The notes under the pieces: model-generated
Seen by the model: the letters and a program-made list of their open reading frames with translations, nothing else
The model's database searches: none
Told to the model about the DNA's origin: nothing
Part shown: in pieces, positions 865-30,600 of the stretch
Numbering within the stretch: the stretch's first letter is position 1
Layout of the letters: every line of letters starts with the position of its first letter
From: a virus
Reading direction: 5' to 3' (one strand)
Virus record (IMG/VR): IMGVR_UViG_3300008267_000027
Location: 23,175-87,174 of that record
Length of the DNA stretch: 64,000 nt
Position numbers and translations under genes: made by a program

Positions 865-1234
865 ACCTGCAAAATACTCTAAGAGTATAAAATTGCCAAC
901 ATACAATTGTGAGCTTATGGTTATAATTACCAGTAAGCTAAAAGATGATGCAACTAAGATATATAAAAAATATAAGATTAAAGATGATGATGAGGATGGT
1001 GAAAGTGAAGGAATAGTTATTAGTCCAGATATAGATAAGTATTTTTTAATGATTGATTTAAAATACCTATCTCATAATACACTAGCCCATGAGATATATC
1101 ATGCTACAGTGAGAATAACAGAGGATAGAGGTATTGTAGAAGAAGAAAGTCAAGCATGGTTATGTGGACATCTCACTGGTGTTATATATAAATTTTTAGA
1201 TAAAAAGACATTGACAATTAAACATGGCGGATAA
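788..1234 (+). CDS. Small zincin-like metallopeptidase
   Basis: LAHEIYHAT (HExxH) plus downstream EESQAW glutamate; true start uncertain because it overlaps the upstream gene. Confidence 0.55.
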   Translation: MLKCKNFGKLIEKQCMENTTTCLSDKPAKYSKSIKLPTYNCELMVIITSKLKDDATKIYKKYKIKDDDEDGESEGIVISPDIDKYFLMIDLKYLSHNTLAHEIYHATVRITEDRGIVEEESQAWLCGHLTGVIYKFLDKKTLTIKHGG

Positions 1235-4200
1235 CACACAAAATACTAATACTAACACAACTAACAGTTTTAATAAAGGATTAATAAAAGATCCTGCTGA
1301 TAGTTTTGTTGGAGAAGGTTTATGGACACATGCAAGAAATGCTGTTAATAATTCTACAGAGGGTCAGCTAGGATTATTAGGTAATGAACCTGCTACCACT
1401 CTTTGTAAGTATGTACCTTATACAATAATAGGTTCTATATATTTAGGTGGGGAAGACTGGATTATATTTTCAACAGACAACTTTAATTCAGAGATAGGTA
1501 AGTTTAATGAGAAAGATTGCACATATTCTAAATTAGTAAACGCTCCTTGTTTAAACTTTAAAACTTCTAACTTAATAAAGGCTGCAGTAAAATCTAATTT
1601 TGATTGCACGAGTTCTGTATACTGGGATGATGGTATAAACCCCACGAGAGTTTTAAATGTAGATAATATTCCATATAAAGAAAAACCTAGAAAGAATACA
1701 GGAACAGAATGTTATGTAGCAGAATATACTACTGATTTAGATTGTGAAGCCTTAAGACTTGCACCATTATTAAAAACACCTTGCGTTAATCTTTCAAAGG
1801 GGAAGACTGGCGGTATAATGCCTAATGGTTCATACCAAGTTGTAATAGCTTATTCTATTAACGGTATTAAAGTTACTGATTACTTTTTACCATCTAACAT
1901 ACAATCTTTGTTTAGTCACTCAGATGTGTCTGGATCATTAGAGGTTGAAATAGAAAGTATAGATGAAGATTTTGATGAGTTTGAACTTGTAGTTATTAGT
2001 TATGTAAAAGAGAATATTACAGCTAGAAAAGTTGGGAACTATTCAACAAGAACTAAAAAAATATTCATTGACAAACTGGATGCTGCAGCTGTTGTAGTAG
2101 GTGTAGATAGGATACCTTTAAGAACACCTTCTTATGAAAAATCAGATGGACTATATGATTTAAATGATTACTTGATAAGAGTGGGTATATACACCAAACC
2201 TGATTTTAACTACCAACCTCAGGCTAACAAGATAGAAGCAAAATGGGTTGCTGTAGAAGTTCCTTCAAATTATTATGTTAAAGGAGGTAATGAAGTATCT
2301 TATTTGAGAGATGAAGTGTATTCATTTTTTATTAGATGGGTGTATAACACTGGTGAAAAATCAGCAAGTTATCATATTCCAGGAAGAGCTTCTCAAGGTA
2401 GAGATACATCTAATGCAGGTGGTACTGATGCAATAGAAACAAGAGAGGGTGGTGGACTAGTTAAAAAATGGCAAGTAAGTGATACATCTAAAATTTTAAA
2501 TAAGTCAACATCTACATTAGAAGGTGTTGGTACTATTGTAGCACAAGGTGAAATGGCTTACTGGGAAAGCACAGAAAGATACCCAGATAATAATCCTGCA
2601 ATATGGGGTGATTTGTGTGGTAAACCTATTAGACATCATAAAATGCCTGATAACAGCACCACTCATATTTATAATCTTGAGAATGATGCTATAGTATTAT
2701 TAGGTGTAAAGTTTGAGGGTATTACACATCCATTAGATAATGATGATAATCCAATATCATCTATAGTAGGTTATGAAATACTAAGAGGATCTAGAGAAGG
2801 TAATAAAACTGTTATTGCTAAAGGACTTCTTAGTAATATGGCAGAGTATGATATTGATCCTGATGTATCAAGTAGAAAAGGTTTATATGCAAACTATCCT
2901 TTTAATGATCTTTCTGCAGACCCTTTCCTATCTAAGAAACCTGTAAAGGGTGGTTGTGAAGGTAAAGGATATACATCAATGGGAAGTTTTAGAAATGACT
3001 TATTTAGCTTTCACTCCCCAGATACACAGTTTAGAGATCCTTTCTTAAACCCATATGAATTAAAAATACATGGTGAAGTTTTTGGAACAGTGGAAGGTAG
3101 CTTTAGTCCTGTATATAGACATCCACAACATAAACTCATAAAAGACTTTGCTGTATTTTGTGCAGCTATTATAGGTGTTGGTGTAGGTATACTATCTATT
3201 AAAGGTAGAACTACAACAGGAACAGCAAAAGATCCTAAAAGAAGTCTTGATACAGGTTTAACAATGACAATTGGTGGTTTTGCAAATGGTCAATTAGTTA
3301 ATACTCCATTAGGAGGATCATTAGGTGAAGGTACAATTAATACTTCTCAGACAACTGAACAACTTGTACCTACTGAAAATAGAACTTTGATGGCAGCCCA
3401 AGCTGCATTCACTTTTACATACTTTATGGGAGCTGGTATGGATGAGGCGTTAAGAACAATAAGATTTATGCTTCCTTATCAGCAGTATGCTTATCAATAC
3501 AATGCTCATGGATTATATAATAACTATATAACTCCTACTCCTGGAAATATTAGACGTAAAGTTGTAGATGCTCAATATATTAATCCATATATTCAAGATT
3601 TTGGACCTACTGAAAGAATTAATAATCTATTTAGAAGTCGGTTTGTAGCTTTAAGAATAGAAGATACATTAGAGAACCCATCCACAAAAGACAACTCTAG
3701 AGTTACTATTGGTATGCTTTCTCAATGGGATAATCCTACAAGACCTTTTTCAAGAACAACATCTTCACACTATAGTTCTCTTAAAATACAATTACCTAGT
3801 CAATATGGACAACTTGATGGTATAATGCAAGTACCTGTTTCAGGATGCACATATTACACTTCTGGTGAAAAAGATATAAGATATACTTCTCCTGTATTGT
3901 TTGGAGGAGACACCTACATAAACAGATATACTGAAAAAAATGCATTCTTTTTCTTTAATGACTGGTTGATGGGACAACCTGATGGTTTTACATATGACTA
4001 TATGCAGTATGTAAATGTCCCCTATCCTAGATATTGGATGGATAGCAGTGATTATGATTCTTCTAGATTAATTGCTCCATTAGCTAAGATAGCAGTTGGT
4101 GTATTTGGAGGAGCTGCATTAGGACAACTTATAGGAAATATAATTCAAAATGCAGCAAGTAGTGCAGCAGGAACTATTGGAGGAACTGCAGGTAATATTG

Positions 4201-6023
4201 TAGGAACAGCTACAACAATTGGTGGTGTGGTAGGTGGGTTAGCAATGGGTACTATTTCTTTAGCAGATTGGAAAAGTCAAGTGTTAGCTAATGACTATTT
4301 TCATTTAGACAGAAGAAAATCAGATTGTACAGGTAAAGTTGGATTCGGTGTTAGAGATGCATTCTTTTATGTATTTGCTAATGGTGTAAGAGATTTCTTT
4401 GTAGAAAGTGAAATTAACTTAGCACAGAGAGACTGGGATGAAGAAACAGCTAGACGTCACTATGATCAATATACCTATACAGATCTTAAATCATTATTTA
4501 GAAGTGATATTATAAAAGCAGGTAACTACTATAAATATGATTATAGTTTGTCAGCTAATAGAATGTTTAACAACTTTATATCTTGGGGTAACTTGGTTCC
4601 TAGAGATTTTGATCCACTAGTCTCTGAAAAATGTTTTTCATACTATCCATCTAGAGCAATATACTCACTACCTACACAGGATGAATTAAAGAGAGATAAT
4701 TGGAGATTCTTCTTAGCTAATAACTATTATGATTTTGGTAGCACTGTTACCACAATAAAAGGAGTTAACCAGTCTGGTGCTTTAATTCTTTATGCTGATG
4801 CCTCTCCAAATCTATTTGCTGGTGTGGATCAACTACAAACTAATAATGGAATTAAAGTTACAATTGGTGATGGAGGTCTGTTTGGTACACCTATGCAAGC
4901 TACTAGTAATGCTGAACATCTTTATGAATATGGAGCTTGTCAATCAGTGTATGGAGTTATAAATACACCTGCTGGATTATTCTGGATAAGTCAGAATCAA
5001 GGTAAGGTGTTTCAGTATGGAGGTCAAGGAGCACTTAAAGAGATTTCTAGAAACGGTATGAAGTTTTGGTTTGCTAAGTATCTACCTTCACAACTACTAC
5101 TTCAGTTCCCAGATTTTGAACTTAAAGATAATATTGCATCTGGTGTAGCTGCTTCATTGACATATGATAATGTAAATGACATTTTATATGTTTGTAAAAA
5201 AGACTACGTAGTTAGAGATGAGTATAAGGCAAATGTTGTATATGATGGTGGTAACAGATTTAGATATTTAAATCAACTTATATACTTAGGAGATAGTAGA
5301 ATTTTTGAAGATGCAAGTTTTACAATCAGTTATGATGTAAAAACAGAAGCATGGATAAGTTTCCATGACTGGCATCCTGATTTTGTAATCCCTTCTAAGA
5401 GACACTTCTTAACAGTTAAAGATAAAGGTATATATAGACATAATGATAGATGTGATTTATTCTGTAATTTCTATGGTGTAGATTATCCATTTGAAGTGGA
5501 GTTTGTATCTCAAACTGGTCAGACAGTAACTACAATGAAAAATGTAGAGTATCAGTTAGAGTGTTACAAATATGATAAGACATGTCAAGATAAAAACCAT
5601 ATACTAGACTATAATTTTGATAGGGCTGTTATACATAATACAGAGCAAAGTTCTGGTGATTTGAAGTTGGTCCTTAGACCTAAGAATGATCCAATGTCTA
5701 TAATAGACTATCCTATTATTAAAGCTAATAATATTGACATTCTATATTCTAAAGAGGAGAATAAATATAGATTCAACCAGTTCTGGGATGCTACAAGAAA
5801 CAGAGGTGAGTATAAAGAAAACTATACACCTATGTGGCAAACAGCTGCAAATGGTTATGACAAAGTATTAAATGAAGCATATCACAATTATCAAAGATCA
5901 TTAACCCAACATAAAAAAATAAGACATTATTTAAATAAGATTTTGTTGAAGAGGATGAAGTGTGATGATGTTAAAATGTTATTTAGATTGTCTAATGCTA
6001 AAGTTACAAATTCATTTAGATAA
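1224..6023 (+). CDS. Tail stabilisation / muzzle protein (P22 gp10-like, crAss-like)
   Basis: 1599 aa; N-terminal SFNKGLIKD..WTHARNAVN, YLRDEVYSF, FGGDTYINR and C-terminal WISFHDW motifs typical of this family; position before the ejected-protein genes. Confidence 0.75.
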   Translation: MADNTQNTNTNTTNSFNKGLIKDPADSFVGEGLWTHARNAVNNSTEGQLGLLGNEPATTLCKYVPYTIIGSIYLGGEDWIIFSTDNFNSEIGKFNEKDCTYSKLVNAPCLNFKTSNLIKAAVKSNFDCTSSVYWDDGINPTRVLNVDNIPYKEKPRKNTGTECYVAEYTTDLDCEALRLAPLLKTPCVNLSKGKTGGIMPNGSYQVVIAYSINGIKVTDYFLPSNIQSLFSHSDVSGSLEVEIESIDEDFDEFELVVISYVKENITARKVGNYSTRTKKIFIDKLDAAAVVVGVDRIPLRTPSYEKSDGLYDLNDYLIRVGIYTKPDFNYQPQANKIEAKWVAVEVPSNYYVKGGNEVSYLRDEVYSFFIRWVYNTGEKSASYHIPGRASQGRDTSNAGGTDAIETREGGGLVKKWQVSDTSKILNKSTSTLEGVGTIVAQGEMAYWESTERYPDNNPAIWGDLCGKPIRHHKMPDNSTTHIYNLENDAIVLLGVKFEGITHPLDNDDNPISSIVGYEILRGSREGNKTVIAKGLLSNMAEYDIDPDVSSRKGLYANYPFNDLSADPFLSKKPVKGGCEGKGYTSMGSFRNDLFSFHSPDTQFRDPFLNPYELKIHGEVFGTVEGSFSPVYRHPQHKLIKDFAVFCAAIIGVGVGILSIKGRTTTGTAKDPKRSLDTGLTMTIGGFANGQLVNTPLGGSLGEGTINTSQTTEQLVPTENRTLMAAQAAFTFTYFMGAGMDEALRTIRFMLPYQQYAYQYNAHGLYNNYITPTPGNIRRKVVDAQYINPYIQDFGPTERINNLFRSRFVALRIEDTLENPSTKDNSRVTIGMLSQWDNPTRPFSRTTSSHYSSLKIQLPSQYGQLDGIMQVPVSGCTYYTSGEKDIRYTSPVLFGGDTYINRYTEKNAFFFFNDWLMGQPDGFTYDYMQYVNVPYPRYWMDSSDYDSSRLIAPLAKIAVGVFGGAALGQLIGNIIQNAASSAAGTIGGTAGNIVGTATTIGGVVGGLAMGTISLADWKSQVLANDYFHLDRRKSDCTGKVGFGVRDAFFYVFANGVRDFFVESEINLAQRDWDEETARRHYDQYTYTDLKSLFRSDIIKAGNYYKYDYSLSANRMFNNFISWGNLVPRDFDPLVSEKCFSYYPSRAIYSLPTQDELKRDNWRFFLANNYYDFGSTVTTIKGVNQSGALILYADASPNLFAGVDQLQTNNGIKVTIGDGGLFGTPMQATSNAEHLYEYGACQSVYGVINTPAGLFWISQNQGKVFQYGGQGALKEISRNGMKFWFAKYLPSQLLLQFPDFELKDNIASGVAASLTYDNVNDILYVCKKDYVVRDEYKANVVYDGGNRFRYLNQLIYLGDSRIFEDASFTISYDVKTEAWISFHDWHPDFVIPSKRHFLTVKDKGIYRHNDRCDLFCNFYGVDYPFEVEFVSQTGQTVTTMKNVEYQLECYKYDKTCQDKNHILDYNFDRAVIHNTEQSSGDLKLVLRPKNDPMSIIDYPIIKANNIDILYSKEENKYRFNQFWDATRNRGEYKENYTPMWQTAANGYDKVLNEAYHNYQRSLTQHKKIRHYLNKILLKRMKCDDVKMLFRLSNAKVTNSFR

Positions 6024-8956
6024 TGAGAAAAGACTCACCCTTATTAGCTTTTTATTATGATAGACTTCCATCTAAGAAAGAAGGTGGTCCTGGAGATGGA
6101 ATATTTGATTCTGTAGTAAGTAAGTTAAATCCATTTAATTGGGGAGTAACAGACTATAGTAAATCTGGTTCATTTAAAAATGCTTATTCAGCAGCATTAA
6201 AGAATAATGAAAAGGAGTTCATGTATAATAATAAAAGGTATAATACTAATTATAAAGGTACAGAACAGCAACAATTATCAGCTACAGGTATTACAAACAA
6301 TCAAAGAATGAATCAAAATGTTTTTAGGAAAGCTCTTAGAAACATTGATCAAGGAAGTGGTAGTGAGGATGTTGATGAAGGTTATAATGGATATCCTAAT
6401 CCTTTTAATGCTCTAGGAGATTTGCTTGCTGGTAAAAAATATAATACTCAAGATGATCCAGAGCAAACAGATATGCTTAATATTTATGCAGGTGCCCCAC
6501 AAAAAAATAACACATTAGGTGTTAGTAGGTATAAACCAACTAAGATAAAAGAAAATAATGCATCAACCTACTATAGAGTCAATCCATTAAATAATAAAAT
6601 GCCTAATCAATTGACTCAAGAGCAATTTGATTATGTATTAAAGAATAAAGCTTTTAGTGATTATCTTCCAAATTTTAACAGTTATGTAGATGAGCAAGGA
6701 AAACCGCATAACAACTATAGAGGTCTTGGTACTTTTACTATTGATGCTGGAAAAGATGACAGGGGTGATTATATTTCATATTATGACAAATGGGATTTAA
6801 ATCCATTTAGTTCTGGAAAAAATGCACCTGATTTATCATTAGGTGTAGGTAAACCTTATGAAATTTATGATAGAATATATTATAAAGACTATGGAAATGG
6901 GGTTAAAAAAAGAATGTATTATAATGATAGTGAACTAAGTAATTTAGATTTCAAATCTAAAAATTTTGATACTAAAGCCTTACAGAGAGAGTTGGCAAAC
7001 AGAGGATATAATCTATCTAAATCTTTTATTAAAGATGATGAGGATTATGATGGGATACTTGGTGAAGAAACCAAAAAAGCATATTTAGATTGGAAGTCTA
7101 AATATCAAACTCCTAAAAAAGAATATGGAGGTATTACAAAATACGGACCTGGTGGTATGACTAAAGATCCTAATAAACCTTATTCTAAATCTAATCCAGA
7201 GGGATATGTTAGTTTAAAAAATAATCGAGACTGGTTTGATAGTCATGCTAATTGGACTAACACTGGAAATCCTGAGTGGGATGCTAAAGTTAGACAACAG
7301 ATACTAACAGGTAGATTTGGACTTGATCCTAAATCAGGTGCATTAATAAAGCTTGATAAAAATGAATGGGTTAATGTTCCATCAGAATATAAAAGAGAAG
7401 CTACAGATACTAGACAATGGACACCTGAACAAAAACAACAATCTTGGGAAAAGAAAGTTAAACCTCAAATAGTACAAAGTACTAAAGACTTAATTACTAA
7501 TCCAGTGATGATGGCACCTGGTGCTATACTTACAGGAGGTATGGCTGCAGGTATTCCTGCTATATCTAGAACAGCAGCAGCTGTTGTGCCTGCTTTAGAA
7601 ACATCAATAGGAGGTATACCAGGACTTACAGCAGGTAATCTTATTAATGCAGGGTTTGCATATCAAGGTGCTAAAAATTTACCTAATGTAGCAAGTGCAT
7701 GGAAAGATGTAGCTAATAAACCTACGTGGGGTGGTGTAGGAAATGCTTTAGGTCAAACAGCACTTACAGCAATAGATATCTTACCTTTTGCTAGTACAGC
7801 TGCTAAAGGTATCCCTAGCGTAATGCAAGATGTCAATCAAGCCGGTAATTATTTAACAACACAAACTCCTTTAAAGAGTACATATAAATTAAATCCTTGG
7901 GCATTTAAACCTCAAGAAGGAATGATGTATAGAGGTCTTGGACAAGAAGGAATGGAAGATGCTATTCAATCTGGTGTATTTAGACCTAAGCAACATGGTT
8001 ATGCAGAAGGTAGATCTTTAGCAGAAAAGGTCACTACACCTAAACAGTTTGGTAGTACATTTTATGCTCCTGCTGAAAGATTTGGAGTGGTTGAAAATTA
8101 TGGACCTAGTTACTTAGCAGAAGTTCCTTTTGAAGGTAATGAGTTTGCCAGAAGATATGGAAGAAAAGATTGGAGTTGGAGTACACCTAGACAAATACCT
8201 ATTGAGGAAGGAAGAATACTACAAAAAAATTGGCTAAGAGGATATAAAGAAGTTCCTAAACCTACATCTTTAAGTTCTACTGTAGAAACACCTAGTAACT
8301 TAAGTACTATTAATTTAGAAAGGGGAAGTCCTAAATCTAAATCAAAAATGTATAAAGCTAGTGAAGTAGTTGATGACCCTCACTTTAACATTAAAAAAAT
8401 ATTTAGAGGGGATAAAGAAGTTCCAAAAGAGATTAAGATTGTCGGAAAATCTGGAGATTGGACAGTTAATAAATCTAAAGATGGAACCTATTATTTTAAT
8501 GCTTCAATGTCTAATCCTTTAGAGTCAGGAAAAGCAATGTTAAAAATAAATGAGTTATTACCATCTAAATCTACGATATTAGAACCAAACAGTTTAAGTT
8601 TAGATTCATATAAAAATGTTTTAAAACTAGGGAAAAGACCAGGTTGGAAAATGGAATTTGAAAATTATATACCCTTAAATCATAGTGCAATACATGATAA
8701 AAGTTTAGCTGATAAATTTGGGTTTACTCCTGATGCATACACTGTTCCTTTTGAATCATTAGAAGATGCTAATAAAGCTTTAAAAGAAGTAAACGCAATG
8801 TTAAAAAAACAAGGAATTAATTATGAGGCTGATGTCTTTTCTAATGGTATTGGATTATATGGTATAAAAATACCAAATTTTAAATTAACTAGAGGCTATA
8901 AAAAGGGTGGTAAAGTAAATCCTTTACAGCAATTCTATATGAGTAAAATTAGGTAG
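6023..8956 (+). CDS. Modular virion cargo protein with peptidoglycan-binding domain and possible ART-like module
   Basis: 977 aa; KALQRELANRGY..DGILGEETKKA resembles PG_binding_1; MYRG module; hydrophobic Ala/Gly central segment; xxxGG motifs separate modules. Confidence 0.55.
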   Translation: MRKDSPLLAFYYDRLPSKKEGGPGDGIFDSVVSKLNPFNWGVTDYSKSGSFKNAYSAALKNNEKEFMYNNKRYNTNYKGTEQQQLSATGITNNQRMNQNVFRKALRNIDQGSGSEDVDEGYNGYPNPFNALGDLLAGKKYNTQDDPEQTDMLNIYAGAPQKNNTLGVSRYKPTKIKENNASTYYRVNPLNNKMPNQLTQEQFDYVLKNKAFSDYLPNFNSYVDEQGKPHNNYRGLGTFTIDAGKDDRGDYISYYDKWDLNPFSSGKNAPDLSLGVGKPYEIYDRIYYKDYGNGVKKRMYYNDSELSNLDFKSKNFDTKALQRELANRGYNLSKSFIKDDEDYDGILGEETKKAYLDWKSKYQTPKKEYGGITKYGPGGMTKDPNKPYSKSNPEGYVSLKNNRDWFDSHANWTNTGNPEWDAKVRQQILTGRFGLDPKSGALIKLDKNEWVNVPSEYKREATDTRQWTPEQKQQSWEKKVKPQIVQSTKDLITNPVMMAPGAILTGGMAAGIPAISRTAAAVVPALETSIGGIPGLTAGNLINAGFAYQGAKNLPNVASAWKDVANKPTWGGVGNALGQTALTAIDILPFASTAAKGIPSVMQDVNQAGNYLTTQTPLKSTYKLNPWAFKPQEGMMYRGLGQEGMEDAIQSGVFRPKQHGYAEGRSLAEKVTTPKQFGSTFYAPAERFGVVENYGPSYLAEVPFEGNEFARRYGRKDWSWSTPRQIPIEEGRILQKNWLRGYKEVPKPTSLSSTVETPSNLSTINLERGSPKSKSKMYKASEVVDDPHFNIKKIFRGDKEVPKEIKIVGKSGDWTVNKSKDGTYYFNASMSNPLESGKAMLKINELLPSKSTILEPNSLSLDSYKNVLKLGKRPGWKMEFENYIPLNHSAIHDKSLADKFGFTPDAYTVPFESLEDANKALKEVNAMLKKQGINYEADVFSNGIGLYGIKIPNFKLTRGYKKGGKVNPLQQFYMSKIR

Positions 8957-8979
8957 TCTGCTAAAAATTCAGTAAATTT
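8952..8979 (+). promoter_or_regulatory. Putative phage promoter GGT-N16-AGTAAATTT
   Basis: Same GGT-N16-AGTA(A/T)ATT spacing as the motif before the 56.5 kb operon; lies just before the 9003 gene. Confidence 0.4.
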
Positions 8980-9002
8980 AAATATAAGGTAAATAATAAA
9001 TT

Positions 9003-18697: not shown

Positions 18698-21600
18698 ATG
18701 GCAGATAATCAAAATCTAAGTGACAATTTAGTACCTAGTACAGAATCAAGTCTTTTAAACTATGGACCTGATCTCCTACCTGTAAACGACCTACCTAAAG
18801 TTCCTTCTTATGAAACTCCTGCTATATCAATGCAGGATGGGGCGGATCCTTTTGCTGATTTGTATACAGACTTTGATAAAAAGTTTAATCAGACTTTAGC
18901 TAAAACAGATTATGCTAAGCAGGGTGCTGTTACAGAATTCCCTGCAGAGAAAATGCAGTTTGAAAAATGGTACCAAAGTTGGGACTATTCTGATAAAGGA
19001 TTTATTCCATGGAGGGATAACCAAGATGTTTATGATTCTGATACTAACACTTTTAAAGAATTATATAGAGCAACTCACTATATGGGTCCTCTTTTTTTTG
19101 ATGGTTTTATGTCTGGTTTAAGGACTATCCCTGATTTAACAGAAGGATTATTTACTGGTAATTGGGATGCATTTTTTAATGTAGATGAAATAGGTGCAAT
19201 TAAACAAGAAAGAGCTTATAGGATGGGTACATCTACAGCAGGTGGACTATCTACATTCGCTACTGGTTTAGGTATTGCTGCATCTAATATGGCAGGTACT
19301 CTTATTGAAGCTCAAGCTGAAACAGCATTATTAGCATTTATTACAGCTGAATCAGGTGGTGCTACTGCAGAAGTTACTCTTCCTGCTATAGGTATGAAAT
19401 GGACAAAAGTTGGTGCTACTATAGCTAATGGTTTTAAGAATATATCTAATGCTACAAAGATTTTTAAAGATGCTGATAAGATGAGAGATGCTTATAGATC
19501 TTTTAAACTTGGAGAGGCAACATGGACAGCAACCAAAGGTTTAGGTAAGTTTTTAAACCCAGCTAGTAACATGGTTGAATATGGTGTTAAACTATATAAG
19601 GGTGAAGAAGCTTTTTCAGCAACTAAAGGTTTTGGTGCATTCTTTAGAGATTTTCAAGAAATGAAATTTGCGTTAGGCGAAGCAAAACTAGAGGGTGGTA
19701 CAGGAGAATTACAATTAAGAGATGAGCTTGTAAATGATTACATGTCTAAAAATGATGGTAGACTTCCTGATTATGACACATCTATTAAAATAGGAGAAGT
19801 AGCAAAACTTAATGGAGATGCTATTACAAAAACAAACCTACCTGTAATATACTATTCTAATAGAATAGGTTTTGGAAACTTATTTAAAGGTGTACCAGGA
19901 TTAAACAAACTAATGGCTGAGTCAGAATCATCCATGTTTAAGTATGTAGATTTTGACACATTTAAAGATGAGTTTGTAAAGAACATTGGTGGTACGAGCT
20001 TTAAAAAAGCTTACAGATCAGGGATTGCTGGGTTAGCTAATTACACAAAGGCTAACTTTATGGAAGGTATACAAGAATCACTTCAAGATGTAATATCATC
20101 ATCTTCTACAGAATATTATAAAAAACAATTCTTTAATCCTTCATACGGTGGATTACAGGTTATAAAAGGAGATATACTGAATGCTTTTGGTCAACAAGTA
20201 AGCGGTCAAGGTTTGTCTACATTCTTAGGTGGATTTGTAATGGGTGCTATTCCAGGTAGTGTAATGGGAGGTGCTGCAAGAGCTCAAGGACTATATTACA
20301 GACTTACCAATAAAGAAGGTTGGGCTGAATTTAAAGCTAAGAGAGAAGCAATGGTTGATGACTATGTAGCTCAACTTAATCAAGTGTATAAAGATCCTTT
20401 AAAGTTTTTTGACTTTGAAATGATTAATGCAGGTCGTCAAGGAGAATTTGCAAAGTTCATGTCACAAGCTACACTAAATAAGAATGACAAAAGTTTTTAT
20501 GATATAAAAAATGAACAGGCGTTTGAACATCTGTATACAGTTTTAAGAAGTGGTAAACTAGAATTATTTAAAGATAGAATCAATACTATTAGTAAACTTA
20601 AAGATGAAGAACTTAAAGAAGCTTTAGGTTTTGATGTAGAAGACCCTAATGTTTTAAGACAGAGGATTCAAGACATCAATAAAAAGATAGACTATATACA
20701 AAAGAGATATGAGATTAGTCAGGAAAAACTAAAGAATCCTATAAATCTAAATGGTCTCAAAAAAGATACTCCTGAGTATGCTAATGCTGCATTACAGTTT
20801 ATAGCTTTTGAAGATGCTAGAAAGCAAGCAATATTTGCTGGATATTCTTTTGATAGAAATGCTGAGAGAATGGCATCTATACTTAAAGATATAAATGATG
20901 TTAAAGTATTATCTAAAACAAGTTTCTTAGATTTTAATATTTTAACTAATCCTTCTTTCTATAATAAAGAAATTGAATTACTGCAAAAAGAGATTACTGA
21001 AAATAAAAAGTCAGATGACCCATCTATTAAAGAATTAGCTAAACAAAAACAACTTAGACTAGATGCTTTAAAGAAATGGAAGTCTGCTATGATTTCTAAA
21101 GGTGCTTATCCTTTTATAACTAAAAATGTTGTTGATCCTGTTACAGGTAAGAAAGTTAAACAACAAGAAGTTAATCCCCAACATGAAGCTTTTAGAACTA
21201 AAGCACAAGAAGCTTTTATAAATTATGCTGAGAGAGAAGGTGAACTAGTAGATGACTCAGTGCTTAAAGATGGGGTTAATGAAGCTTTCACTAAGTTTAT
21301 GGACTATCATGCTCTTTATCAAGAGCAACCTAATTTGATGAAGTCTGTTAATATCATGGCAGACCCTCAAAGCTTTTTAAACTTATATGAATCTCACTTA
21401 GATGAAATTAAAAAAATATATTCTGATAGAGATAATATTCTAAGAGAGTCTATTCAGAAAGCTTTAAGTATTACAGATGAGAATAATCTAATAAACGAAC
21501 TAGCTAAACTTGGGTTTGTAGTTGATCCTAAAGATCCAAATAAATACTATAAAGTATCAGGTGATACATTTGAACTTGTAAAGAAAGGATCTAAAGAAGA

Positions 21601-24600
21601 AAAAACAATCAACACTTTTATAGAAGACTATAAAAAAGCAACAGAGAAAAAAGCTAAGGAAAAGGAAGCTGCTAAGAAAAAGGATGAGGGTGAAAAGGGT
21701 AAAAAAGAAGAAGGTAAAAAACCTACTCCTCCTGTAAAGAAAAAGACTGAAGAAGAAACTAAGGAAGAAGAACCTGAAGAAGAGGATCTACCAGAAGAGG
21801 AAACTGAAATGGTAGAAGAAGGTACTTATGACCCTGAAGCTACTTATATAAATGACTACTTTAAAATTCCTTTAAGAAAAATAAACTACAAGATTAAGTG
21901 GGCTGACAATGGTCAAATAGCATATGCTACATGGAGTTTTGTAGGTTCTAAAGAAGCACCTAATGTTGAAAGATCTGTAAATACAATACAAGACTTAGAA
22001 GAGATTCTCAGACTTAAAACTTTAATGGATTACCTTACTAAAGTTCAAAAGGTTTATAAGGTTGAAATTACTGATACAGAGGTTTTAACTTATGGAAGAC
22101 CTGGAAGTAAACAACAATCTAAAGAGTATAAATATACAGGTGTAATACCTGCTATATTTTCTAAAACAGAAGAAGTTCCATTCTTTTATGATTTACTATC
22201 AGAAGACGCTAAGTATGATTTTGATAATGACTTTTTTACAGAAGAAATTACCGATTTAGAGGATAAAAATAAAAAAGATTTTGAGGAGATTAGAGTGTTA
22301 GTTAAAAGCGGAATTAATGATGTTCTTGATTCTGTTAGAAAAGCAATTGCTGATAAAACAGCAGCAATGAAAGAGGTGCGTACTGTAGATCAGAAGTTTA
22401 TTACATCCTCTACTAATATGGTAAAAATATTTACCATGAAAGATGAGACTAGAGAAAATATGCAAAAGGCTGTTTTCTCTATGAGCAAGGATGAGATAAA
22501 AAGTAAAATGACTGGTAAGATTGAAAAGATTAAACCAGGTGCACCAGAGGTAGTATTTGATAAAACTAGAAATAAGGTAAGACTAAGAGTATTACGTCAA
22601 AGTCCTGCTGTAGCTTCAACTATTTTAGTTGATGGTAAAGCTATAGGCTATCCTACATATCCTGATGTTTACACATTTGAAATTGATGGTGTTATAAAAA
22701 CTGCAAATGAACTAACTAAAAAAGAGTTTTATTTGTTTGCACAAGATACAGTTAGCTATGAAGACTACATGGCAAACTATAATACCAGCATGTCTGTGTA
22801 TAATGCGTTTGCTGATTTATTAGATGATAATAAATCTGTTCAAGTTACTAATGAAGATCTTCAAAAAATATTTGATATCACTCCTGTATTTGGAGATTAT
22901 GCTTTTACTAAGAATAAGATTACCCTATCTAAGTTGGAGAAGAATGGTACTAAACTAATAGGAGTAATTGATAAAAATAATGTAGCTGAAGCTATTGTTC
23001 CTGGTAAGAGTCTTACTGAGGTTGCAAATAATCGTGCTATTATAAATAACTATATAAATACACTAGAGACAGATTCTGCAACTGGTGAAATAAAAAAGTT
23101 TACAAATCAAGGTAGATATATTGCAGTGTATACATTACCTAATGGTAAACCTGCATTTGTTGAAGTTACATCTGCTAACTTAGAAGAAGATGGTTTAGAT
23201 ACAGTGTTTTCTGATATAGCTGAGAGACTTCAAAAAACATATAATGAAAATGTAGTAGCTGATAAGTCTGGTAAAATTGAAGAAGTAAAAAATAAAAACT
23301 TCAATCGTGGGTTTGATACCTTCACTGAAGAGAGTGGTAGAATGCCTTTCTATATTGCTATACCACAAAATCCTCAGAAACCAGATGCTCTATCTTATAA
23401 TATAACTCTTACAGTGACAGCTAATGGATCGTTAGTTGTTCAGTTTGTTAACACACAAAGTAAAGATAAAGAATATCACAAAGCGTATGTTGAAGTTAAA
23501 TATGATGAGAAGGGTAATCCTGACATTGAAGACTTTAATGATATGCTTAGTAAGGTTAATGCAGAGATTGTTAATTATAATGGTGATAATAAAGAAGCAG
23601 ATCTTCCAATATTAAAAGCTGAATATTTTAAAGAGTCTATCCCTAAAGCTGCTAAGTTTAGTGATATGGCTGAACAAGTGACTAATGTTTCTGAGAATAT
23701 TTTTCAGAACACTCACATGATATTCACTCCTGCATCAGAACTTACACCAGATGTAGATGCTGCAAGCAGAAAGACTGGTAAGAAAACAACTATAAAAAGT
23801 TCTACTACTGAGGATCCTCTTTTACCAGTTTTAAGTATTGATGTCTTAAAAGATTTAAAACAAGCAATACTAGACGCTAAAAATATAACTGATTTAGAGG
23901 ATATGTTTGAAGAAGCTATGACACCTTCTTCTGAGGCTGATTTTGAAGCATGGGTTAATGTAAAAGAAAATATTGAGTTTATTCAAAATGACCCAAGTAT
24001 ATTAGCTAAAATTCAATCTGCAAAGAGTCAAAAAGAATTACAAGAAATTTCTCTTAGATATTCTCTTTTAGCTTATTTAGATGCTAAGATAAAAGAGATT
24101 GAAGGTGCTCAACCTGCTGAACCCCCTAAAAAGAAAAGAGGTGGTCTTGGATTAAGTGGTATTAAAGTAGATAAAAATAAATTAAGACAACAAGCAGCTA
24201 GTGAAAATGTAGAGGATAAAGATACAGAAGAAGAAAAGAACTCTGGTAAGATTGCAACTACCTCTGATAATAAAACAGCTCAAGAGATTAATGATCAATA
24301 CTTACAAGATAAAGCTGAGCTAGAAAGTAAGTTTGTTAAAAATAGTGTTGTTACAGATGCTGTAGAATATGATAAAGCTATTACAGAACTAGAGAAGCAA
24401 TTTAAAAAGGACATTGAAAGTCTAAAACCTAAGAGAGTACCCAGACTTAAAATAGTTGATAGAGCTGAATTTGATGATGTATCTGTAGAAGATATAGATA
24501 AGTTTAGGTTGTGGATGAAAAAAACACTACCTACTATTGATGTAGATGCTGATATGGTAGCTGAGAATCTAGTAAACAATCGTGTTGTTGTTGGTAGATT

Positions 24601-27600
24601 TTTAGCATATGTAAAGATGACTGCTAACGGACCAGAAATAAAAGGTAGTATTCAAACTAGTAAAGAGGCTGCTTTTAAATATCATGAAGCTTTCCACGCA
24701 GTATTTAATTTGTTCTTAACTGATGAACAAATAGATAACCTATTAACTTTAGCTAAATATGAAGTTAATAAAAAACTAAAGAGTGAAGGTAAAGTGCTAT
24801 CTGAGGAAGTTGAAAAAATGAGAGATGAGCATCCTAGTTATGCTGAAATGTCTACTGAAGAATTAACAGACAGATATTTAGAAGAGTATTTAGCAGATGA
24901 CTTTGATACATTTAAGATGGATCAATCTGCTCCTGGGATACTTGGTAAGATTAAACAAGTGTTTGCTAAGCTACTAGACTTTATTAATTCATTATTAGGA
25001 AGACAATCTGAATTAAAAACTTTCTATAAAGAAATTGACAAGGGTAAGTTTGCTAATGCTAATGTTCAAAGTAATAGATTTACTAAAGACTTAGCATTAA
25101 ACAATAATCCTGTTATTGAGAAATACAAAATTAAATATGGATATAAGGCTATAGAAACTCTTAATGGAGAAACTATAATGACTCCTCAATATGTTACTGA
25201 ATCAGATTCACAAAGAATCATAGGAGCTGTAGTTAATTCATTCTTACATCGTACTGCTAAAATGCCTGAGTATAATAAAGCTAGAGTACTTGATGGTATT
25301 TTAGAAGATATGATGAAACTATACCAAATAGGTCCAAAGTATAATAATCTATCTATAGATAAACTTAATAGACTTAGAATGTTCAGAGATATCTTTACTA
25401 GCTCAGAAGCTAAAGAAGATATTAAAAAGAATGCAAACGTGTTCTTAGATTTAATGGGATACACTCAAGATTTAGAAGATGATACAGAATATGAAAATGC
25501 TTTAGAAGATGAGGGTGAAAGAGCTACAACAGAAAAGTTTGGTGAAAAATTTGCTCAAGGTGGTTTTAAATCATTCTCTAAATATGCTAGACAATATATT
25601 CAATCAACCACTTATGAAAAACAAGATGAGTTTGGTAATCAGTATTTAGATGAACAAACTCAAGAACCATTAGCATTTGGTGTTAATGCTGGCGTTATTT
25701 ATAATGGTATGGTTAAGTTGATGAGTGGCGTTACTACAGAAGAGAAGTTTATACAAAGACTTATACATTTTAAAAATGCTGCTAGTGAACAAACTGTAGC
25801 GTTTATAAATAAATTCTTAGAAGATACAGGAATAAATGAAGAGTCTGATTACACCCCTGTTAAAAATAAGAGATTATTTAATGCAATCTATAAACCATTT
25901 ACATTATTTAATGTAAGCTATAGAAGTTATTTAATTGATCCTAAAACTGGTAAGTCTAAGAGTATCCGTGCTAATATGAGAGATGCTGCTAGTAATCAGT
26001 ATAATCAATGGCAAAACAACTTTAATAGCAACTACCAAGACCAGTGGACTGAGAAAAAACAGAAAAGGGTATTAGAGTTGATGACCAGTATTAATGATGG
26101 TTTAAAAGGAGAGTTTGCAATAACAGAAGAAGAGTTTTTAGAAAAAGCAAAAGAACTAAAAGAACTTGAAAGACTTAGTGGTATTAAAATAGTATTTGAA
26201 TATTATAAGTATTCAGCTTTAGCTACTCTTAGAGAAAACAGTAAAAGAACTGCATCACCATTAACTAAAGAACAAATAGACTTTGTTAAATCATTTGAAG
26301 GTGTTCCTGTATTACTTTCAGAAGATATATCTGAAATAATGATTACTTTAGGTAAAAAAGAAAGTCCTTTTATTACGTTTGACGATGTTGTTGTAGATAA
26401 TACACCAGCTGGTCAAGAAGAAGATAATAACTATGATTCAGATGAAGATGAACCAGATGAAGTAGTTAGTGATGAGGACAAAGCTGATGATGCTGTTAAG
26501 TATGAAAAGCAGATGAATAAAGGAAACAGGAGTAGACTTATGCGTATAGCAGAAGGTAACTCTATGTTTGATGAAACTGTTCTATCATCTTCTTGGTTGA
26601 ACTCTGAATTTGAAACAGTATCTTCCCACCAATTGCCTAACTTTCATTTAGCTTATTTAGAAGATACAATTAAAAATCCAGCAGCTTTAGAAAAAAAGAT
26701 AATGGAGGATCCATTCTTAATGGATAGTTATATAGGTCAAGAAATTCTAAATAATGGTGAGTTTAGACAAATGCTAAACAGACTTCGTATTGATCGTATA
26801 GATGGTATCACTGCTAGAAAACTTACAGAACTTCAAGATGGAACTGTATTAGCTAATACTAAATTACAAGTTAACAAACGTGATGGTATTACCTATGGTA
26901 AATTTCAAGATAGAGAATTCTTATTAACAAACATGTTAATGTATCTTGAAGATAATGAAGTTATACGTAAAGCAGGTGGTGAAGAAATAGTAGCTAGTAG
27001 ACATCTTATTCGTGTAATTGAATCTAAGAATACAGGGGATACTATTAACATGCCTGTTATCAGTGCAGTAGTTGGTAAAGGAAATAAACTAAGACTATCT
27101 GAAGAAGCAGAAAAAATTTGGATGCAAGAGTTTATGGCTGAGTTTAACAGAATAAACAGAGTGTGGAGTGAAAGAAATAATCCTGAAAGAGATATCATAG
27201 ATAATTATAATGACTTTGATAATCCTAATAGTCAAATGAGAGGTGTTAAGTTTAGAACCTTTGAAGACTTTTTAGGACCTAAGATGGAGGAGTATAGAGC
27301 AATAGCTATGAGTGATAATCCTGTCTTAAATGCAAGACAGAAAGATCAGCTTGTAAAAATATTTAATGAATACTTATTAGGTGATGAAGAAAATGGTGGA
27401 ATGGTTGATGAGTTTATTTATATGCTAGATGATGCTGGTATTATTAAAGTGATGCCTGGTGGTAAGATTATGAATAAAATGTTACCTGCAGAGATATACG
27501 GTGTAAAAATGAAGAACCCTACAGATAGGATGAATAAACTGTTTTTAGGTACTGACTTCAAAGCTAATCTTGCTCAGATCTTTATTAATGATTATTTGAA

Positions 27601-30600
27601 TACAATCTCAATTAATAAATTATACTATGGTGATCAGGCAATGAGTCTTATTGATTTTGTTGACTCTGTTAAACGTGCTGCTGGTGCTGCAGGTTCTGGA
27701 CACCATATGGCTACAAGTTTGATAGATGAAAGTCTTGGTATAAATCATTCTCATCAGAATTCTCATGCTATCACTCATATTGATCCTATATATGAAGGAA
27801 AGTATTCTAAATCTAAAAAACAAAAGTGGTCAGATGGTCAAACTTGGAGTACTGTAAAAACAGCTAGGTATAATGCTTTTGGTTTAGGTAGACTTGATGA
27901 ATACAAAGCTCAGATATTTGATAAGCTAGAAAGAGGTGTTCCTCTCACTGCAGAAGAAATCTTTGGTATAAATGGTACTATTGAAAACAATGCTCAGCTT
28001 AAGGTTGAGAAACTTGTATACTTTGATGGTAAACAATATATCAAAACCTCTGTATTCTTCTTAACAAAAGAACTCACTTCTCAACTTAAACTATCTGCTA
28101 AAAGAAAAATTGATGCTTTATTAGCTAAAGCAGCTGAGAGTAAACTTACTGAGAAAGAGTATTTAGAAGAAGCATATGCTTTACAGAGAGATAACAATAA
28201 CTGGATAGCTCGTCCTGGTCGTGAAATACTTCATAACAAAAGAGTTGAGATGGAGAAGTTTCAGGATGAAAATGCTACCACTGTATATTCTTTCCCTGCG
28301 TCAGCTTCTAAAATGATGAAGAGAAATGTCTCTCAGTCATTAGAAGACTTTGCTGTTTCACAAAAACAAGCTTATAAACTTGATAATAGATACATGCGTT
28401 TACAGTTGGAGAATACTACCAATAAGAAAGGTGGTATTAATGATTCTACTCAGATGCAAAATATCATTGATGCTGAACAAAACCCTAACACTAAAGTAAC
28501 ATATAAAGGTGAATCAGGAGTTAAGGTTAAAGATGTTATTAAAGATTACCAAGAAGCTCTAGCTCAAAAAGCTAAGGTATCATATCTCTTAGCTCGTAAT
28601 AGTATTTTCTCTTTTGAAGATGCATCTAAAGAGTTTGAAGTTTCTGTAAAAGGTGGTGAGGTAACTCCTAAGCTTGCTAAGTTTCAGAAGAAGGCTATTG
28701 AAAACTTGAAAAAGAGTGGTGCATCTCAACAACTTCTTGAGTTCTTTGAACTGCAAAAAGATCCTGAAACAGGAGAAGAGACTCCATCATATGACCTTAA
28801 TAGTCCATATACTAGAAAAAAGTATGAGCAGTTATTCTTAGCATACTTTAGAAAAGATGTTTTACAACAGCGTACTCCTGGTCAAGCCCTTACATTAACA
28901 TCAGACTGGGGAGCTTACCCATTAAAGAGAGCTAAAAGAATTTTAGATGGTAAGGTGGTTGAATGGGAAGTTGTAAGAGTGGATCAACAAGAGGTTAGTG
29001 GTAAAGAGTACAGACCTATGTCTGACAGAGAAAAACTAGAGAATAAAGTTAGTATAGAAGAAGGTCAACTTACTGATGAAGAAAGATATGAAATGTTTGT
29101 ACGTGGAGAAAAAATTCCTAGTGGAGTAGATGACTATGAGTTTTTCCATAAGAGCATAGATGATGTTACAGAAGTTGGTCAACTGTTTACTGACAGATTA
29201 CGTCACAACTGGCCTGTATATGATGAAGCAGGAAACGTCACAGGATATAAGAGTGAGTTTATGATGCCTCATCATTTTAAAGAGAGTATGGAAATTGGTC
29301 CAGATAATGAACTTCCTCAAGACATTCTTGAAGCATTTGCTGCTCGTATCCCAGGTCAGGATAAACACTCTGCTGCTAGTTTAGATCTTGTAGACTTCCT
29401 ACCTGCACACTATGGTTCAATGACAATGCTTCCTAGAGAAGTAGCAGAGATCTCAGGTGCGGATAATGACGTGGATAAGGCATATACACAGTTCTCTGAT
29501 TTTTATGTAAAAAGAGACAGAGAAGGAAACCCTGAGTTTATAAAATATGGTACTGCAGTTGAAGATGCTGATAGATTTGTAGAGTTTTTCTTATGGAACA
29601 TTGCTAATAATAAAAATCTAAACAGTGAAATTAGAGATATAAAAGAGGGTGATGAAAACTATAAGAAAATAAAAACTCTATTAGATAAACTCTATATAGC
29701 AAAAGAACACATCTTAAATTATAAAAAAGCTGGTCAAGAGTATTTAGAAGAGCTTCATCAAGTGGATAGAGCTATTACGTTTATGTCTAAAGTAGATAAC
29801 TTAGATGAAACCTCTGATGCTTTAGAAGAAGATTATATACTAGCTGAATATAATAAAGTAAGAGGTCGTGCTGCTGAATTTGTTAAAGAAAGAATTTTAA
29901 AACTAGATGATTTAATTTCTGATATAACAAGAGAAGTTAGAAGATCAGGTAGTAATATATCTGTGGTTAAAAACAGAATAAATGAGGTTAAGCGTGAAAA
30001 ACTTTTAATAGAAAGAGTTATTCAGATGGAAGCTATGGAGAATTTAAATCTTCCAACTGATGTTGAACAATTCTTAGACTTTGAAGATAACCTAAATGGT
30101 GAAGTTAATATTGGATCACTTAACAATACTATACTTGAAGCTAAAAGAGTTCTACTTACTAATGATTACATGCAAGAAGATGACAGAGCATTTGAGGTAG
30201 CTGATCAGGGTGTTCTTGAAGATCTTGAAAAAGATAAAGATATTGCTCCATATACAACTCCAGATAGCACAATTGATAATGATAATTATGTAGGTAAAAC
30301 TTTAGCACAGCGTAATAACAAAGAAGGTTCTAGAAACATTGGTTCTGTGGTAAATGGTCAGATGTCTAATTTATTCTTAATGAAGAATAATGTTAAATTT
30401 AGACGTAAAGATGCAGATAAAGCAAATCAAGTTTACATACTTTCTATTGATGGTACTGAGTTTGATACCTATGCTAATGAGCGTAAAGCACTGATTACAG
30501 ATGACTATGAAGTTGTACCTAACTTTAAGAGTAAGAAAACTAGACGTGTAATGAATGCTGGTTCTGGATATGTATCAGTAATGACGGATAATGCTAAAGA

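Follow-up and report, generated by a model that had tools for sequence, protein, structure and literature searches.

Aromatic-x-x-Gly-Gly marks at the cassette junctions of four cargo-position proteins in a crAss-like phage

In this study, we analysed a 64,000-nucleotide stretch of phage DNA (the window; bases 23175-87174 of the 87,174-base IMG/VR record IMGVR_UViG_3300008267_000027, estimated to be 72% complete), and in particular four adjacent open reading frames (ORFs) of 977, 796, 654 and 765 amino acids (aa) that are punctuated by a short recurrent mark, an aromatic residue followed by two variable residues and a pair of glycines (aromatic-x-x-GG). The mark is real, conserved and located at the junctions of the modules that make up these proteins. 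This confirmed the motif noticed in an earlier sequence-only reading of the window and extended it to a wide family of related proteins. The features on which the analysis is based are as follows.

1224..6023, plus strand: muzzle protein gene, 1599 aa
6023..8956, plus strand: cargo ORF 1, 977 aa
7118..7156, plus strand: junction KEYGG-ITK-YGPGG between modules 1 and 2 of the 977-aa ORF
9003..11393, plus strand: cargo ORF 2, 796 aa
11013..11390, plus strand: tail of the 796-aa ORF, with seven aromatic-xxGG marks (11013-11297) and then the terminal cassette GG-IVVGETYDATPELLQKLSEGG-YTYELV
11396..13360, plus strand: cargo ORF 3, 654 aa
13277..13460, plus strand: boundary of the 654- and 765-aa genes, an in-frame junction in fused relatives
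13371..15668, plus strand: cargo ORF 4, 765 aa

The window belongs to a crAss-like phage, and the four ORFs lie in the cargo position. The muzzle protein scores 91 bits against Pfam crAss_MUZ (cut-off 27) and shares 64% identity with its homolog at L003, which together with L005 is a syntenic metagenome locus, and an ORF further upstream has a CrAss_Ring_2 match; the portal is missing from this incomplete record. The four ORFs stand directly 3' of the muzzle gene and 5' of the giant RNA polymerase (RNAP)-type genes, in the order crAss_MUZ gene, the four ORFs, and ORFs of 980, 5174 and 2196 aa. The ΦcrAss001 record shows the identical order of muzzle, cargo and giants; there the muzzle protein gp44 is followed by the cargo proteins C1 (gp45) and C2 (gp46) and by RNAP-associated giants, and, according to the available text of the structural study, C1, C2 and the giants were all detected in the virion (PMC10172136). 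In Cellulophaga phage phi4:1, the positional counterparts gp041-gp037 are annotated as virion proteins detected by tandem mass spectrometry. The name "cargo", which the sequence-only reading had given to the four ORFs, is well placed because the ΦcrAss001 cargo genes and the phi4:1 virion proteins hold the matching position.

In the 977-aa ORF, KKEGG (residues 18-22) is followed by a mobile module of ~335 aa (residues ~25-360) that includes a PG_binding_1-like stretch (316-353); then come KEYGG (366-370), YGPGG (374-378), a module with a Gly-zipper-like stretch (368-611), a lead resembling DUF952 and ADP-ribosyltransferase (ART) proteins (612-756) and, near the end, YKKGG (959-963). The 796-aa ORF opens with a leader ending in MAYGG (11-15) and a Q-rich cassette, and continues through YAAEG-x5-GPGDG (84-99), KKNGG-LY-KAYEG (295-306), a DUF3597-like stretch (307-349) and a CHAP/NlpC-P60-like lead (455-665) to a tail of GG cassettes (671-796). 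The 654-aa ORF consists of an N-terminal tag, MKIKVTG...IPKAIDG (1-23), the strings YGKDG and VAAEG (289-300), an M23 peptidase (391-486), and a C-terminus with FKEGG (628-632) and a terminal cassette ...ANGG-TVEYL. Finally, the 765-aa ORF comprises a basic N-terminal tag, an IEVEGG...HSKGG domain, MEYGG-SYYG-LPKALEG (238-253), a Q/N/A-rich helical part and the C-terminal SKDGG-MFIPIYQLGG-W (750-765). Among the domains proposed earlier, the M23 peptidase was clearly recovered (Pfam 91.5 bits, cut-off 28.7), whereas PG_binding_1 (E 0.013) and DUF3597 (E 0.0049) stayed below the Pfam cut-offs, and the NlpC/P60/CHAP-like assignment has look-alikes in the ESM Atlas as its sole basis (feature score 0.91-0.92, TM 0.43-0.51).

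More than 20 copies of the motif had been claimed, and all 23 listed strings were found in the translations of the four ORFs; 20 fit the patterns [FYMK]..GG or [KY]A.[DE]G, and YGKDG, VAAEG and SKDGG are looser. The cluster of seven copies at 11013-11297 was also exact (FQNGG, FKQGG, YECGG, YAYGG, YNFGG, FNDGG and FQHGG, residues 671-765 of the 796-aa ORF). Relative to a null in which residues were shuffled within each protein, [FYMK]..GG was strongly enriched in the four ORFs, with 19 occurrences vs 6.0±2.4 expected (reached by 0 of 5000 shuffles), and so was [KY]A.[DE]G, with 4 vs 0.36 (5 of 5000). The other 57 ORFs of the record (24,074 aa) were not enriched, containing 23 vs 17.7 of the former (reached by 40 of 300 shuffles) and 0 vs 1.4 of the latter. 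Plain GG was barely raised in the four ORFs (37 vs 30.0±4.8; 452 of 5000 shuffles); the signal thus lies in the context of the GG and not in glycine content, and glycine richness was rejected as its cause, the GG count being near the composition expectation. Since the patterns had been picked after looking, these enrichment figures are inflated. In sequences outside the original reading, [FYMK]..GG occurred 18 times vs 5.4 expected in L003 and 20 vs 7.1 in L005 (each reached by 0 of 2000 shuffles), and the control proteins in this comparison were never enriched. Among four distant crAss-like phages, the enrichment was weak, insignificant or absent, with 4 vs 1.7 in phi4:1 (173 of 2000), 5 vs 2.1 in ΦcrAss001 gp45 (125 of 2000), 3 vs 1.5 in Lbo-JY46 and 1 vs 1.7 in Fpv1. 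Around isolated GG pairs, aromatic residues were 3.3-fold enriched at -3 and 2.4-fold at -1, and aliphatic residues 1.9-fold at +1. The glycine codons at the marks are mixed (GGT/GGA) and near the overall glycine codon usage, so selection acts on the protein; a signal at the DNA level was rejected on the same ground.

The marks are also conserved among homologs. The 796-aa ORF has ten matching proteins including the query, and the seven homologs aligned with it (41-61% identity) retain the N-terminal ...MGG, AA[ED]G-x5-GPGD, KNGG-LYKAxDG and the C-terminal GG series; in two of them the whole stretch from YKxGG up to the following conserved segment is missing. For the 765-aa ORF, 38 matches were counted together with the query, and 21 of them were aligned (23-55% identical to the 765-aa protein, with a mean column identity of 20%). 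Only 12 columns of this alignment are invariant, including E61, E63, E72, H90, G93, G94, G241 and G242, the last two being the GG of MEYGG. The C-termini of this family end in GG..W in 20 of 38 proteins and hold GGxxPxY within the last 25 residues in 21 of 38. Conservation is often higher in the peptides between marks than in the enzymes, and PMYNFGGYFPQGPRF is a near-invariant example.

Motifs had been placed at termini and between modules by the sequence-only reading, and the comparison of module content between relatives bore this out, as alignment breakpoints, fusions and the gain or loss of cassettes coincide with the marks and modules are swapped at them. The 977-aa ORF has 44 homologs, with individual coverages of 8-49%; their BLAST segments end at residues ~358-378 or start at 363-377, and their Pfam domains include LysM, PG_binding_1, Phage_lysozyme2, Glucosaminidase and ART-PolyVal. 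Residues 368-611 align, from KEYGG, to residues 12-289 of a 985-aa protein of L003. The ~335-aa module takes an N-terminal, middle or C-terminal place in the homologs, and in most of the 22 full-length alignments listed it is flanked by xxGG or AQ[DN]G (upstream YMQQGG, YQDGG and PKAQDG; downstream KQKGG, FKEGG and KKAYGG) or is protein-terminal. When breakpoints were counted as alignment ends beyond which both proteins continue for >30 aa, 55 of 153 lay <=15 aa from a motif vs about 22 expected from random placement (28/62 for the 977-aa, 13/24 for the 796-aa, 1/8 for the 654-aa and 13/59 for the 765-aa ORF); because alignment ends are not independent, this count is supporting evidence and not a formal test. 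Genes are fused and split at a mark as well. Of the 9 homologs that exceed 1150 aa, 8 have, in place of the boundary between the 654- and 765-aa genes, an in-frame junction of the form FxxGG - poly-N - MKI[KR]ITG[TV]P - [FY]A[DE]GG - [RK]TVGDQMGYGLYRG, and a 1370-aa ORF of L005 has the same type of junction with the MKIRI unit doubled.

The tail of the 796-aa ORF showed this organization at its finest scale. A phmmer search with residues 660-796 against 1.84 billion representatives returned 37 proteins at E<=0.001, the tails of which are ordered short conserved units, each ended by GG: STYSAGVWYxxGG, MPCYECGG, MYAYGG, DIPNYMxxxNPMYNFGG, YFPQGPRFxxGG, QTMDNTMMGMINVFxxGG, a basic helical unit of ~58 aa (IHIDPSKKGTF...ANFARNAxKWKxxxGG) and a terminal unit (IVxGQxxDVTPxxLxxLxxGGYTFEII). 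Units are gained and lost as blocks from one GG to the next; the ~58-aa cassette, for instance, is either there or missing with both boundaries precisely at a GG. Several proteins have QG, EG or MG where the terminal unit has its last GG; this GG seems to belong to a fold rather than to mark a junction. The N-terminal modules of the tail-bearing proteins vary (YkuD in 4 of 33, DUF5754 in 4, DUF3597 in 3 and Glucosaminidase in 1), and some small ORFs consist of a tail alone (P0112, 136 aa; P0116, 146 aa). A pattern scan with the tail-only P0112 found 13 IMG/VR loci; a muzzle homolog lies directly 5' of the cargo gene or genes in 10 of them, and the other 3 begin at a contig end. Two tail-bearing proteins pass the Pfam crAss_CARG1 cut-off of 27 (35.8 bits at L018 and 50.5 bits at L021), so the tail cassettes occur in bona fide C1 proteins. 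As a separate observation, P0122 (633 aa) and the protein at L011 9128-10345 consist over their whole length of many small conserved units split by GG, which include matches to DUF5872 and DUF5754, families without an assigned function that also exist as separate small proteins.

Neither megablast nor tblastn with the region or with the 796- and 765-aa ORFs found a match among named phages, pattern scans of viral contigs with the window's own proteins or with A1 returned no relatives, and the PDB profile searches, run with A1 and A2, were empty at E<=1.

The closest structural reference is C1 of ΦcrAss001 (gp45; crAss_CARG1, PF25725), which is likewise encoded by the first gene past the muzzle; a basic N-terminus and a Gly-zipper-like stretch are further common features. 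It carries at least 10 xxGG marks, and its copy of the ~58-aa helical cassette matches that in relatives of the 796-aa ORF at 36% over 75 aa (E 0.04, small database). The parts of C1 reported as ordered are helix 214-245 and domain 425-552 (PMC10172136). SAYGG (206-210) precedes this helix, NAFGG (425-429) stands at the start of the domain and FAYGG (560-564) just past it, and the ordered, docked pieces of gp45 are segments between marks; the model of the domain begins two residues before the motif GG and holds two more GG. The authors treat C1, by inference, as one chain that links tail and capsid via the intervening 179 residues, and the available text describes C1 without mention of the motif and has 0 occurrences of "cleav", "proteoly" or "protease" (PMC10172136). 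In contrast to C1, the cargo of the window is split over four genes and includes cell-wall enzyme modules that gp45 lacks. The crAss_CARG1 model, which represents the portal-binding domain, did not match the window's ORFs (E<=0.01), their segments (E<=1) or the six frames of the whole record (E<=10), and the comparison of the 765-aa family with gp45 was insignificant (hhalign probability 2.9%; BLASTP E 0.33); the 765-aa ORF was rejected as a crAss_CARG1 member, with only short collinear pieces resembling gp45. Consequently, when we regard the four ORFs as an expanded and split set of C1-type cargo (ejection) proteins, "C1-type" refers to position and common cassettes and not to membership of the family.

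The interpretation that we tentatively prefer, and that falls just short of probable, is that aromatic-x-x-GG is a structural stop and hinge mark delimiting separately folding or docking cassettes in C1-type cargo. Each cargo ORF would be a string of separately evolving cassettes, namely cell-wall enzymes or binders, small helical mini-domains and short peptides rich in aromatic residues and proline, almost every one of which is closed by aromatic-x-x-GG, usually with a hydrophobic residue next; the related (L)PKA-x-x-G mark recurs nearby. Both marks may form a helix C-cap or a turn together with a flexible glycine pair that keeps neighbouring cassettes from merging. Each cassette could then fold, dock and unfold on its own, in the way that C1 segments dock on the tail barrel and portal of ΦcrAss001, and the chain would be stored in an extended form and leave from N to C through the tail. 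As a by-product, insertions, deletions, fusions and fissions would be tolerated at the marks, which would give rise to the cassette shuffling that was observed. We favour the hinge because the marks are enriched in cargo, conserved and located at junctions, because gp45 is ordered between its marks and because none of the protease families searched for could account for cleavage, and from this we infer both the hinge or cap role and an uncut chain. The 12 residues before GG were more helix-prone than the 12 after it (0.588 vs 0.659; paired Wilcoxon p about 1e-4, n=196 GG in 14 proteins) on a crude propensity scale. Hydrophobic residues at -3 and +1 fit the geometry of a Schellman-type cap.

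Several points weigh against a hinge. First, a plain hinge rarely needs two invariant glycines and a conserved aromatic residue, and ordinary linkers drift. Second, the helix-propensity effect is small, and many cassettes before a GG are non-helical (MPCYECGG, MYAYGG, PMYNFGG), so a cap would cover only part of the sites. Third, the marks flank cassettes on both sides, as in a polyprotein, and the short N-terminal leaders (MYSFFDYQPQMAYGG) and the 1-2 residues past the last GG (GGW) are propeptide-like. Fourth, the continuity of the C1 chain in ΦcrAss001 is an inference of its authors and not a measurement (PMC10172136).

A different account of the same pattern is proteolytic processing, in which the marks are GG/X cleavage sites and a virion-packaged or host protease cuts the cargo into cassettes, in the head or after ejection, removing short leaders and freeing enzymes and small basic mini-proteins. 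We consider it unlikely on balance, yet it stays a strong rival because the GG with its aromatic residue exceeds what a hinge needs, the bracketing is polyprotein-like, the ends are propeptide-like and a zincin-like candidate lies nearby. Conservation is concentrated N-terminal of the GG (the 3.3-fold and 2.4-fold aromatic positions), with a next residue that is variable but hydrophobic, nearly every cassette is flanked, and fused and split gene forms are interchangeable at a mark. The candidate is the neighbouring 5174-aa ORF (18698-34222), which carries a single HEAFH at residue 1996, and ADNDVD at residue 3589; a Pfam and PHROG search with the whole protein was empty except for one weak PHROG match, and the HEAFH region had no match. 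In their available texts, one study expects crAss-like giant polyproteins to be cleaved and names a zincin-like domain (10.1101/2020.03.07.982082), and another proposes processing of polyvalent proteins by zincin-like peptidases (PMC5512222), and both expectations count in favour of cleavage, which would also explain the presence of C1 parts in both tail and capsid of ΦcrAss001.

The main obstacle to cleavage is the protease. The sequence-only reading took the motif for a loading or cleavage tag, an interpretation that is partly supported, as cargo position, swappable modules and junction location agree with it, whereas no head-maturation or Gly-Gly-specific protease family was found. Models of S78, S77, C39, C48 and C5 had no match at E<=1 in this 72%-complete record, and those of S78, S77, C39 and C48 (C5 not being searched there) were absent from all five related genomes, namely Fpv1, ΦcrAss001 and phi4:1 (complete GenBank genomes) and two IMG/VR genomes that are 96% and 100% complete. 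Some M23 enzymes cut Gly-Gly bonds; M23 was rejected as the general processing protease, being absent from all five of these other motif-bearing genomes. Furthermore, the motif is not enriched in the giant ORFs for which the literature predicts cleavage, cleavage alone does not need near-invariant peptides between marks such as the one given above, seven sites within 95 aa would yield fragments of about 6-28 aa, and the ΦcrAss001 domain model 425-552 extends across GG pairs at its start and within. Virion gel bands of 270 and >300 kDa, as far as the available text of the ΦcrAss001 description reports them, are consistent with uncut giants (PMC6235969).

Known processing systems show how far the analogy could reach. 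T4 gp21 and the phages phiKZ and SPN3US reportedly illustrate prohead-protease processing and capsid-targeting sequences of internal or ejection proteins, and these head-packaged proteins resemble the present ones in that short conserved marks occur in them, both in N-terminal leaders and internally. Such systems have a dedicated S77-type protease that cuts after Glu, unlike the present genomes, where neither the record nor the five relatives has an S77/S78 match. Adenovirus and African swine fever virus (ASFV) cysteine proteases process core polyproteins at GG-X, and C39 peptidases cut double-glycine leaders. By analogy these enzymes may favour cleavage here, with a Gly-Gly pair, a hydrophobic residue a few positions upstream and marks flanking small basic proteins stored with DNA as the likenesses; the difference is that C5, C48 and C39 have no match in the record and C39 and C48 none in the five relatives. 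A specific form of the cleavage account, which we rate as rather doubtful, is that crAss-like phages package polyproteins whose cassettes are cut at aromatic-xx-GG/X by a virion protease that has so far escaped recognition, such as the zincin-like domain in the RNAP-associated giant. If so, the released cassettes would be cell-wall enzymes, an ADP-ribosyltransferase-like module and small basic mini-proteins, and the phages would possess a counterpart of adenovirus and ASFV Gly-Gly-X core processing that explains C1 in tail and capsid.

It is quite improbable that the motif is itself a short docking or "sticker" signal, many copies of which would attach to one shared site on capsid, portal or scaffold, or to one another, so that the cargo is co-assembled into the procapsid. 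Its copies are multivalent, clustered in tails that are also found as stand-alone small ORFs, and restricted to cargo ORFs across lineages, and a C-terminal GG[YF][IV]PxY..GGW is conserved (the GG..W end of 20 of 38 homologs), which agrees with docking. However, the contacts described for ΦcrAss001 are made by cassettes, and SAYGG before helix 214-245 is outside the ordered part (PMC10172136, available text); in addition, the motif is loose outside GG and a poor basis for specific binding, and loading would need no more than one tag per protein, whereas nearly every cassette is bracketed. Least probable of all is that the marks have no function of their own, being either remnants of linker ancestry or short repeats with no effect beyond promoting recombination between cassettes, for although the gain and loss of cassettes is bounded precisely by GG pairs whose flanks are alike on either side ([ED][EQD]GG/I...), the GG is invariant amid 20% column identity, the codons are mixed and the repeat of <=6-9 bases is too short for homologous recombination, and the mark recurs beside unrelated modules.

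Two further described systems share parts of this architecture. The cargo proteins may resemble polyvalent proteins in uniting several unrelated effector or enzyme domains in one packaged polypeptide, and the L003 counterpart of the 977-aa ORF carries ART-PolyVal, the window itself being below the cut-off; they differ in that a junction motif is no part of the description of polyvalent proteins, the terms "linker", "glycine" and "low-complexity" being absent from its available text (PMC5512222), and in that many of the present cassettes are not enzymes but mini-domains or peptides 4-60 aa long. As a second likeness, exchange between swappable segments also occurs at short conserved glycine marks in the gp38 adhesins. 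In T4-type gp38 adhesins, glycine-rich motifs delimit variable segments within one compact receptor-binding-tip fold, whereas the marks described here stand between unrelated domains of ejected proteins.

The conserved GG punctuation and the catalogue of cassettes appear to be undescribed in the available text of the literature that we found, while the protein class (crassvirus cargo, polyvalent proteins) is known. Crassviruses are described as being among the most abundant gut and aquatic phages, with a storage and ejection of about 5 MDa of cargo protein (PMC10172136, available text). The punctuation provides a simple rule by which otherwise unannotatable cargo proteins can be parsed into units, and the catalogue contains small conserved cassettes common from freshwater phages to ΦcrAss001. 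If the marks are cut, they would reveal a new phage maturation or processing system; if uncut, a hinge grammar of a threaded ejection protein.

Some further elements were observed in the cargo proteins. First, residues 612-756 of the 977-aa ORF (7856-8290) contain YRG...GSTF...AEVPFEG, and their Atlas model resembles DUF952 (TM 0.60-0.63 over ~100-118 aa); a Pfam search gave no match for them in the window itself, and at the matching end the L003 counterpart has ART-PolyVal above the cut-off (61 bits vs 31.2). The segment may be a divergent ADP-ribosyltransferase-like effector. Second, a basic-aliphatic tag, MKI[KR][IV]TG.(L)PKAQ, stands at the N-terminus of the M23-type and 765-type cargo proteins (11396-11464 and 13371-13460 in the window; 16350-16500 in L005). 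It starts 24 of the 38 homologs, with LPKAQ within the first 30 aa of 7 of the 38, and recurs inside fused forms past a poly-Asn, A-rich spacer, being doubled in L005. The tag may serve as a start for internal translation or as a loading tag that is repeated, and the [KY]Ax[DE]G strings appear to correspond to the end of the MKI...PKAQ element. Third, a second common element, GPGD[GD][IVLE][FW], follows the first motif near three N-termini (6074-6110 and 9252-9300 in the window; 12438-12560 in L003), as KKEGGPGDGIF, YAAEGIEVEDGPGDGVF and, in L003, PKAVDGLVAGPGDDEW.

In addition, the L003 counterpart of the 654-aa ORF (12438-13150) has an extra module of ~200 aa, with no Pfam match, right after the N-terminal PKAVDG. 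Beyond the four ORFs, the 5174-aa ORF contains two similar stretches of ~30 aa, at residues ~1805-1840 and at the C-terminus, and the 980-aa ORF (15728-18670), the counterpart of Fpv1 gp32, has a central Gly/Thr-rich stretch (NEYGGGGFGDGTSSTTTGGTTGGGAG) that opens with an EYGG mark.

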